In this document: positions 39,076 to 39,615 of the stretch, one piece after another
Layout: every line of letters starts with the position of its first letter
How positions within the stretch are numbered: the stretch's first letter is position 1
Source: a virus
Lineage: Duplodnaviria; Heunggongvirae; Uroviricota; Caudoviricetes
Reading direction: 5' to 3' (one strand)
Length of the DNA: 46,116 nt
Virus record (IMG/VR): IMGVR_UViG_2565956722_000005
Coordinates: 1 to 46,116 of that record
Position numbers and translations under genes: made by a program
Notes under the pieces: model-generated
Database searches by the model: none
What the model saw: the letters and a program-made list of their open reading frames with translations, nothing else
Told to the model about the DNA's origin: nothing

Positions 39076-39615
39076 TCATATTGCCCCCAGCATGGTGGTG
39101 ACCATCGCCATCAATGGACCAGCCAGATCCGGGTCCACTCGAAACATCGACACAATGCCTTCACTCATCTCCTTCAGTTTCTGGTGGCGTGGTGCGTTGA
39201 GAATGACCGCCTGCTTTGCCTCACTGAGTTCCTTTTCCATTTCAGCCAGCCGAGCCATGAAGCTATCCTGCTCAACCAGGTGGCCGCGATATTCCAGCGG
39301 TAGTACCGCCAGAATTGCCGGGGTCAGTTCACGCACGTTATTTCGGTATTTTTCAGAATCGAATTTGTTATCGAGGAAGCGGAACAGCTTCTGGCGTGCA
39401 CGACTGACATCATCAGGAAAATCGATGGTGCCGCCGCCCTGTGCTCGATACTCATTCACAATGAGTGCGGCAACTACATCCTGATTATCTTCAGCAGACC
39501 AAGCGCGGACGGCATCACGGATTTTTTCGTGGCCTGGCACCTGTTTTGTTTGAGAACGATTTATCACCGCAGTCGGGCTAAATCCGCTAGTCTGTTGGTA
39601 TGTAAGTGGTTGCAT
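39076..39615 (-). CDS. YdaT-like protein occupying the cII position
   Basis: 179 aa; segment ...EYRAQGGG...PAILAVLPLEYRGHL resembles Rac YdaT; AAGGAG RBS; immediately downstream of cro. Confidence 0.55.
   Translation of the reverse strand: MQPLTYQQTSGFSPTAVINRSQTKQVPGHEKIRDAVRAWSAEDNQDVVAALIVNEYRAQGGGTIDFPDDVSRARQKLFRFLDNKFDSEKYRNNVRELTPAILAVLPLEYRGHLVEQDSFMARLAEMEKELSEAKQAVILNAPRHQKLKEMSEGIVSMFRVDPDLAGPLMAMVTTMLGAI

Follow-up and report, generated by a model that had tools for sequence, protein, structure and literature searches.

A phi80-type cII gene of the YdaT family with candidate target sites in its own 5' end and upstream of ninB

What kind of regulator stands behind cro in a lambdoid prophage when the gene found there is related to ydaT? 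The question is raised by a DNA stretch of 46,116 nucleotides (nt) from a virus of the Caudoviricetes (IMG/VR record IMGVR_UViG_2565956722_000005, positions 1 to 46,116). In this stretch, referred to here in its full length as the window, the first gene downstream of cro encodes a protein of 179 amino acids (aa). The original prediction considered the protein YdaT-like and saw it as standing in place of cII without being a cII-like activator, with a function left unsettled between cII analogue and toxin. The best explanation as a whole, in which we have high confidence, is that the protein belongs to the YdaT family and is also the cII of a phi80-type lambdoid prophage. What is established here comprises membership of the family, the predicted fold, the position of the gene and its orthology to phi80 cII. 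The gene itself is ordinary and already known, being annotated as cII in near-identical phages. New and unproven is what comparative sequence analysis suggests, namely that a palindrome and an antisense -10 within the gene form a CII-activated promoter directed towards cI.

A YdaT-family protein in the cII position

The gene, its neighbours and the domains of its product are:

39076..39615, minus: cII gene, phi80 type, YdaT family, 179 aa (ATG open reading frame, Pfam PF06254, PHROG 163)
39622..39627, minus: Shine-Dalgarno sequence AAGGAG of cII, 6 nt 5' of the ATG (sequence reading)
39685..39915, minus: cro-like gene, YdaS family, 76 aa (PF15943, E=4e-17; PHROG 35)
40020..40709, plus: cI repressor, helix-turn-helix (HTH) and S24 peptidase, divergent from cro (Pfam, PHROG 4)
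38060..38989, minus: replication gene O (PHROG 277 match from residue 31; MANTAEIF preceded by GGAGG)
38964..39068, plus: oop/M3-like antisense RNA unit (promoter scan, alignment, fold)
residues ~29-113 of CII: five-helix POU-like HTH domain, recognition helix 70-82 reading SRARQKLFRFLDN (AlphaFold and alignment)
residues 143-178 of CII: conserved C-terminal extension, helices (AlphaFold and alignment)

Searches with hidden Markov models bear out the YdaT relationship. The protein scores 103.5 bits with Pfam YdaT (PF06254, DUF1019), where the cut-off is 21 (E=8e-30), and the match pairs residues 67-154 with model positions 1-90 out of 92. PHROG 163, described as 'CII-like transcriptional activator', is matched by residues 17-179 over profile positions 1-168 of 168 (E=3e-67), and NCBIfam returned nothing useful for the protein. 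A full-library HMMER search yielded only 111 clusters at 50% identity, essentially from Enterobacterales, and the family is therefore compact. In the phage collection, 16 coliphages carry annotated cII genes 94-98% identical in DNA and 95-99% in protein, including 4A7, Lambda_4C10, D2, 1W, 3W, Perceval and the PhiR series. Protein identity reaches 66% with phi80 cII (residues 1-179), 68% with mEp237 CII and 53% with the cII of HK225 and HK639, and is ~35% with short YdaTs, for example the one of Rac-SA53. The name cII in phi80 reportedly comes from clear-plaque genetics and the early-region papers of 1988. Both phi80 records, JX871397 and X13065, apply this name to the 66%-identical gene. The original view was correct in so far as no Pfam match to the lambda Phage_CII family (PF05269) was found at E<=0.1, but the protein is nonetheless a cII, namely that of the phi80 type.

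The predicted structure agrees with this assignment. Sequence comparison with solved structures gave CP-933P YdaT (8bt1) and 3c4r as the only meaningful relatives, with E ~1e-3. An AlphaFold monomer model built on 41 homologues (mean predicted local distance difference test score, pLDDT, 76.5) has helices at residues 29-43, 45-58, 70-82, 88-104 and 107-113, and then at 119-138. The HTH that the original prediction proposed to look for is present in this model, and it is of the POU-like kind. The top Foldseek matches are again 8bt1 and 3c4r, with probability 1.0 and target-normalised template modelling scores of 0.64-0.66 over 117-123 alignment columns, at modest E-values (4e-3). Q75 and R79 of the recognition helix are invariant among the 41 homologues and also in the alignment with short YdaTs. 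The recognition-helix arginine (R60 in CP-933P, R57 in Rac) is required for DNA binding (PMC9986795, PMC11879457). The modelled helix 119-138 aligns with alpha6, the helix through which YdaT tetramerises as an antiparallel four-helix bundle.

The protein was also expected to be longer than Rac YdaT, and it is. Compared with nine short YdaTs of 138-163 aa, it carries 27 additional N-terminal residues, a shorter alpha2-alpha3 loop and ~15-20 additional C-terminal residues. The C-terminal addition is a strongly conserved final helix, with A141, P142, H144-K146, E149, S151-I154, P167, L168 and others invariant. The N-terminal extension (residues 1-27) is predicted to be disordered, with pLDDT<50 for residues 1-25. 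The start methionine is common to all 41 aligned homologues, most of which are 178-180 aa long, and the next in-frame ATG follows only at about residue 120.

The open reading frame lies exactly where it had been placed, on the minus strand behind the YdaS-type cro. The gene order is cI / cro (YdaS) / cII / O / P, with lambda-like O (PF04492) and P (PF06992) recognised by Pfam. The cI frame is listed from 39954, yet its Pfam and PHROG 4 matches begin only at residue 23 (Met23). The mechanically called O frame (339 aa) reaches 39079 and overlaps the cII stop codon (ATGA). As family matches to O start at residue 31, where MANTAEIF follows GGAGG, O probably begins at 38989, 30 codons inside the listed frame. 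A gap of 86 nt would then follow cII, and the ATGA overlap is probably spurious. The gene is followed by a phi80-style M3 RNA unit, and the phi80-type cII module is thus complete in the window. A promoter scan places a sigma-70-type promoter (TTGAAT-17-CATAAT) at 38964-38992 on the plus strand. The RNA of ~70 nt would end in a hairpin at 39027-39059 (-24.6 kcal/mol, z=-4.1) and a T-run to 39068. The unit aligns with the annotated M3 RNA of phi80 ('homolog of lambda oop') and with the M3-like RNA of HK639. Its end is separated by a few bases from the cII stop codon, and so, unlike lambda oop, it would not pair with the cII coding sequence.

Database naming has favoured another function, in which YdaT is the toxin, or the antitoxin partner, of a YdaS-YdaT toxin-antitoxin pair. 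Pfam calls the two families 'Bacterial toxin ydaT' and 'Bacterial toxin YdaS', many entries are named 'toxin YdaT domain-containing protein', and over-expression of Rac YdaT leads to filamentation and death (PMC11879457). Against this stand the position of the gene, which fills slot X in the cro / X / O / P order of a complete lambdoid prophage, and a predicted fold made of a DNA-binding HTH and an oligomerisation helix. Moreover, toxin-antitoxin function was tested and rejected for CP-933P and Rac, the toxicity of Rac YdaT arising through activation of rcsA (PMC8630535, PMC11879457, PMC5917428). YdaS and YdaT of these prophages are analogues of cro and cII (PMC5917428, PMC8630535), and homology between CP-933P YdaT and phi80 CII has already been stated (PMC8630535). 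These homologues have been demonstrated to bind DNA, to form tetramers and to activate a leftward promoter for the repressor gene (PMC8630535, PMC9986795, PMC11879457). The description of the function as unsettled or toxic is therefore outdated, and a toxin role for the window protein is very improbable. Even more remote is the idea that the protein is a lambda CII family protein that has diverged, despite the annotation 'cII' in phage records and recognition helices that look alike in lambda CII and YdaT (PMC11879457). The missing Phage_CII match is accompanied by a length of 179 aa versus 97 aa, and the best structural matches are YdaT proteins only. YdaT furthermore binds inverted repeats as a symmetric tetramer, whereas lambda CII binds direct TTGC repeats (PMC9986795). 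In practice, the label of such genes should be corrected from 'toxin' to 'CII (YdaT family) transcriptional regulator'. Since a common group of lambdoid phages of E. coli has this gene as its standard cII, the gene carries little wider weight.

A palindrome and a predicted antisense -10 within the cII gene

YdaT assembles its POU-like HTH domains into a tetramer and recognises the sequence TTGATT-N6-AATCAA (PMC9986795). In Rac, YdaT recognises ATGATTCATGAAAATCAA at the start codon of ydaT and switches on racR transcription in the leftward direction (PMC11879457). The following elements bear on where a corresponding site of the window protein might lie:

39550..39567, minus: YdaT-box-like imperfect palindrome GTGATA-AATCGT-TCTCAA, gene +49..+66, codons 17-22 (predicted CII site)
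39588..39593, plus: predicted -10 TAGTCT of a leftward pRE-like promoter (TAnnnT invariant in 57/57)
39660..39672, minus: boxA-like CGCTCTTTAACAA in the cro-cII spacer, in nutR-like position (single perfect match in the window)

The structure of natural recombinants narrows the search. Among 80 IMG/VR loci with a cII 96-100% identical to that of the window, two unrelated upstream modules occur in about equal numbers and both abut cII at its ATG. One, the window type, has the boxA-like CGCTCTTTAACAA; the other, the Perceval type, features a GC hairpin. The immunity (cro) and cII modules thus meet in a mosaic junction at the cII start codon (window region 39613-39684), and any cis element travelling with cII must be intragenic. 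The boxA-like element is missing from the alternative module joined to the same cII and is accordingly part of the immunity/cro module, not of cII. The window-type module also has a direct repeat, AATTGACT, in two copies (39616-23 and 39635-42). As a lambda-like CII site this repeat was rejected, since it is missing from the alternative module upstream of near-identical cII genes. The cro-cII spacer was likewise discarded as a place for the published box, its best match (39649-39666) having three mismatches, a quality found 38 times versus 29.5 expected by chance. CATAAT at 39613-39618 was considered as a pRE -10 and is not kept in phi80 or mEp237, and an inverted repeat GATTTA..TAAATC (~39558-39584) is not kept in phi80.

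Within the gene, conservation was assessed in 57 unique homologues from 63 species-level genome loci plus reference phages, at 40-74% protein identity. Positions +49..+66 read nTGAT(A/T)-N6-nnTCA(A/G) in all of them, with T50, G51, A52, T53, T63 and C64 invariant. The palindrome takes the form GTGATAAATCGTTCTCAA in the window, ATGATAAACCGCGCTCAA in phi80, TTGATTTTTGAAAATCAG or TTGATATCTCAGAATCAG elsewhere, and ATGATAAATCGCAATCAA in the mEp237 type, the form that can be set beside the footprinted Rac box (PMC11879457). The Ile18 codon is ATA in 46 genes, ATT in 11 and ATC in 0/57, while ATC makes up 279/487 (57%) of the Ile codons elsewhere in the same genes (Fisher 5e-20, a value inflated, as these tests count related sequences as independent). 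The Leu or Val at codon 17 is encoded by NTG in 15/15 cases versus 50% elsewhere. Codon 21 specifies A, N, S, F, D or Y, with its third position (+63) always T, and the codons in the middle of the box vary freely (NR, YQ, SQ, FE, KR, SN). The pattern is clear despite the inflated p-values. Synonymous sites that stay fixed while the encoded residues vary point to a constraint on the DNA and not on the protein. The Ser of codon 10 is always AGC. On the antisense strand, +28, +27 and +23 form the invariant TAnnnT, +27 being the third base of an N, S, D, G, I or T codon. In the window, TAGTCT lies 20 base pairs (bp) from the box, and a transcription start near 39600 would put the box centre at ~-41.5.

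The same arrangement recurs at other YdaT loci. The gap between box and antisense TAnnnT is 20 bp in Rac of K-12 (TATGAT), Rac-SA53 (TAGCCT), Chris1 (TATTAT), Kp4865-4 (TATGAT) and Aeromonas pAEv1818 (TAACAT), and 21 bp in Kp4882-1 (TATCAT), Actinobacillus phage pPE4 (TATGCT) and Tritos (TAGTTT). Tritos encodes a YdaT 95% identical to the CP-933P sequence of PDB 8bt1, and its box is perfect. No box was found at the ST405-OXA48phi1.2 locus at the threshold used. Recurrence of the spacing in eight other YdaT loci is the strongest support for the box-proximal promoter that we infer here. Such a promoter would also make sense of the N-terminus of the long form. No indels occur in +1..+66 among the 57 homologues despite the predicted disorder of residues 1-25. 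The 27-residue extension might largely be the translated form of the promoter region, and a promoter lying in coding sequence would explain why this N-terminus is conserved yet disordered.

Several points besides the inflated p-values weigh against this interpretation. The window box departs from the ideal at 4/12 positions (GTGATA..TCTCAA), and the binding specificity of the long subfamily is extrapolated from proteins only ~27-37% identical. No box was found upstream of int as a pI analogue; this region lies beyond the window and, in an identical prophage, has a half-site only, not above chance. The YdaT-activated promoter of Rac was put ~190 bp from the box (PMC11879457), and in CP-933P the box was described as lying downstream of the proposed promoter (PMC9986795). 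Both published reporter designs contain box-proximal DNA, however, and hence do not exclude a proximal start (PMC11879457). The authors of the CP-933P structure consider YdaT a repressor (PMC9986795). A YdaT-family regulator in the cII slot might have a main role other than establishing lysogeny, such as autoregulation, repression of pR-operon or replication genes, or control of host genes. Further sites bound by Rac YdaT are the racR-ydaS operator region and a host promoter (PMC11879457). In the window, the in-gene box lies inside the cII transcript, where bound protein could block pR transcription or cII translation, and a box with two mismatches is found in the cI-cro operator region (39926-39943). 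We nevertheless regard such a main role as improbable. Both phi80 records name the gene cII, the two characterised homologues switch on leftward transcription in the direction of the repressor gene (PMC8630535, PMC11879457), and a box accompanied by a conserved antisense TAnnnT at constant spacing suits activation better than roadblock repression.

A candidate second target upstream of ninB

A pattern search of the window for the published YdaT box led to a different region:

33009..33026: only perfect published YdaT box in the window, TTGATT-N6-AATCAA, TTGATTTCCCAAAATCAA (pattern search)
32937..33003, minus: nin promoter -10 CATAAT (33003..32998) and two-hairpin leader (sequence; context kept in 21 loci)
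32994..32966, minus: hairpin 1 with conserved loop CCUGAACAA
32961..32937, minus: hairpin 2

By arithmetic on the 12 specified bases, ~0.003 perfect boxes are expected in 46 kilobases (kb). The box is flanked by a ybcM-like gene and the ninB/ybcN-like gene. Its TTGATT half, read on the minus strand, forms a -35 hexamer, followed by a 17-nt spacer that holds AATCAA and by the -10 CATAAT. A protein bound at ~-26 would block RNA polymerase, and we propose repression of the ninB...rusA...Q unit. This would make 33009-33026 a new, though unproven, candidate for a second CII target, to which we give only about even odds, since the element persists in a few phages without a YdaT gene.

Comparison among loci provides evidence on both sides. 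Close relatives of the window have invariant half-sites around 15 different 6-nt spacers, and the homologous palindrome-promoter of phi80, TTGATAAAACACTATCAA, precedes its ninB-like gene with half-sites kept and spacer altered. Perfect TTGAT-N8-ATCAA, counted 3.4-9.3 kb downstream of cII, is present in 47/55 close and 19/49 diverse phi80-type loci. It is present in 0/45 lambda-CII loci whose downstream sequence extends for 8 kb or more and in 4/80 of all lambda-CII loci. The box-bearing loci picked up by scanning IMG/VR for the pattern had a YdaT-family cII in 22 cases and a lambda-type cII in two. An exclusive linkage between nin box and YdaT-type cII was rejected, given the four lambda-type loci that carry it. 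That box, promoter and leader occur together in these 4/80 loci and in two further loci (L161 and L164), all without a YdaT gene, speaks against CII as the ligand, and another protein may bind the nin box, or the association may reflect shared module ancestry.

The palindrome could accordingly be a promoter element for another phage or host factor, co-occurring with YdaT-type cII by modules travelling together. The left half is a reasonable -35 hexamer by itself, and the phage 82 record (X92588) records a putative promoter with the same -35/-10 and labels the downstream hairpin 'possible regulator-binding site', leaving the palindrome unannotated. Such a factor is harder to reconcile with the behaviour of AATCAA, which lies in the promoter spacer, unconstrained by promoter function, and is invariant across the 15 spacers and across genera. 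The sequence is also exactly that of the footprinted YdaT box, and its frequency of 39-85% in phi80-type loci contrasts with 5% in lambda-type loci. We consider another factor a serious contender, somewhat short of an even chance. If CII does bind the nin box, this second target would couple the lysogeny decision to late-gene expression.

The leader has features of its own. Seven of the ten pairs of hairpin 2 covary. Hairpin 1 combines variable stems with an invariant loop, CCUGAACA(A/C), and has three tandem copies in one locus (L222). The two-hairpin unit resembles a structured 5' leader of the nin/Q operon, possibly serving antitermination or attenuation. The hairpin-1 loop was dismissed as a nut-site copy, being unlike the annotated nutL core of phi80 and present only once per genome. 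Rfam detected no family in the whole window, nor around cII at a relaxed threshold. A 24-nt block, TCACAGATGCAGAAATGCACCTGC (32886-32909, minus), just 5' of the ninB ribosome-binding site, is identical in phi80 and many diverse loci while its flanks diverge.

Between P and ninB (33059-37365, minus) the window encodes a renD-like protein, an EmrE-like small multidrug transporter, a large serine recombinase (YbcK-like) and two further genes, one of which has a regulator-like C-terminus. The gene order of this block is the same as in the cryptic prophage DLP12, and Perceval has the same renD-like, EmrE and serine recombinase genes followed by a different gene. On the other side of cI, a pL-like region (40980-41220, plus) contains CAAC/GTTG operators and an untranslated leader of ~190 nt before a 96-aa open reading frame. 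No N-like antiterminator was recognised by eye in this region, though the rightward side has the boxA-like sequence. The integrase gene (44908-46116), whose first base is the final base of the window, is not matched in the phage collection. Several E. coli chromosomes carry it with 100% identity, in each case in a prophage adjoining espL1. Repeated TTGTGTACC motifs upstream of int are probably Int arm sites (locus L354).

Proposed circuit and comparison with known systems

We suggest the following circuit. Going by the Rac and CP-933P homologues, cII would be transcribed from pR behind cro after infection, and CII would assemble into a tetramer via its long helix. Its POU-like HTH domains would bind inverted repeats of the form TGAT(A/T)-N6-(A/T)ATCA and turn on a leftward promoter supplying cI. 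Comparative sequence analysis points to the 5' end of cII itself (39550-39567), 20 bp from the antisense -10, as the main site. CII bound there would be centred at ~-41.5 over a poor -35, the class II activator geometry known from lambda CII at pRE, and the transcript from ~39600 would run antisense through cro into cI. More tentatively, CII may also bind 33009-33026, where it would cover the -35 hexamer and spacer of the promoter upstream of ninB...rusA...Q. Occupation of this site would restrain late-gene expression and achieve by another route what paQ does in lambda.

The full proposal joins a box-proximal class II promoter in the phi80 type, and probably in the whole YdaT family, overprinted in the long form by the N-terminal 27 codons of cII, to the nin shut-off. 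Taken jointly, its chance of being right is just under even. If true, one regulator turns on cI and delays late genes, and the published promoter assignments for Rac and CP-933P need revision. The comparative result offers a simple, testable architecture for how a YdaT-type CII switches on the repressor and is of modest wider interest.

The closest known systems are those of the phi80 group. CII of phi80 (PHI80_49, 180 aa), mEp237, HK225 and HK639 has the same N- and C-terminal extensions as the window protein. In this group cII likewise lies between cro-like and replication genes and is followed by an M3/oop-like RNA unit. The in-gene box is found there as in the window, and so is the homologous palindrome-promoter before a ninB-like gene. 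The window differs from phi80 in its immunity module, with a YdaS-type cro and the boxA spacer, and in lambda-type O/P in place of phi80 genes 15/14.

CP-933P YdaT shares with the window protein the Pfam family, the POU-like HTH with a long helix, the place after a YdaS-type cro and the recognition-helix motif QK[IL]FR[WF]LD with the essential Arg kept. It differs in its ~27% identity, its length of 141 aa without the N-terminal extension and conserved C-terminal helix, its longer alpha2-alpha3 loop, and a box that overlaps the start codon instead of codons 17-22. Rac YdaT (b1358, E. coli K-12) resembles the window protein in family and position. It binds a box at the start of ydaT and has been shown to activate leftward transcription of the repressor gene (PMC11879457). 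A near-consensus antisense TATGAT lies 20 bp from its footprinted box ATGATT-N6-AATCAA, the spacing seen in the window. Rac YdaT is, however, of the short form and ~30% identical, and its activated promoter was published at ~190 bp from the box. Rac YdaT moreover acts on a host target, rcsA, and its over-expression is toxic. Neither the Rac nor the CP-933P paper places the YdaT-dependent promoter beside the box, where an antisense TAnnnT is present in Rac and Tritos.

Lambda CII is unlike the window protein in belonging to an unrelated family, in its length of 97 aa, in recognising direct TTGC-N6-TTGC repeats and in its tetramer architecture (PMC9986795). It occupies the same genome slot, with an oop-type antisense RNA likewise at the 3' end of the gene. 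The two would also share the proposed logic, in which a binding site over the -35 region and a promoter lie in the 5' end of the regulator's own gene, and a transcript antisense to cro expresses cI.

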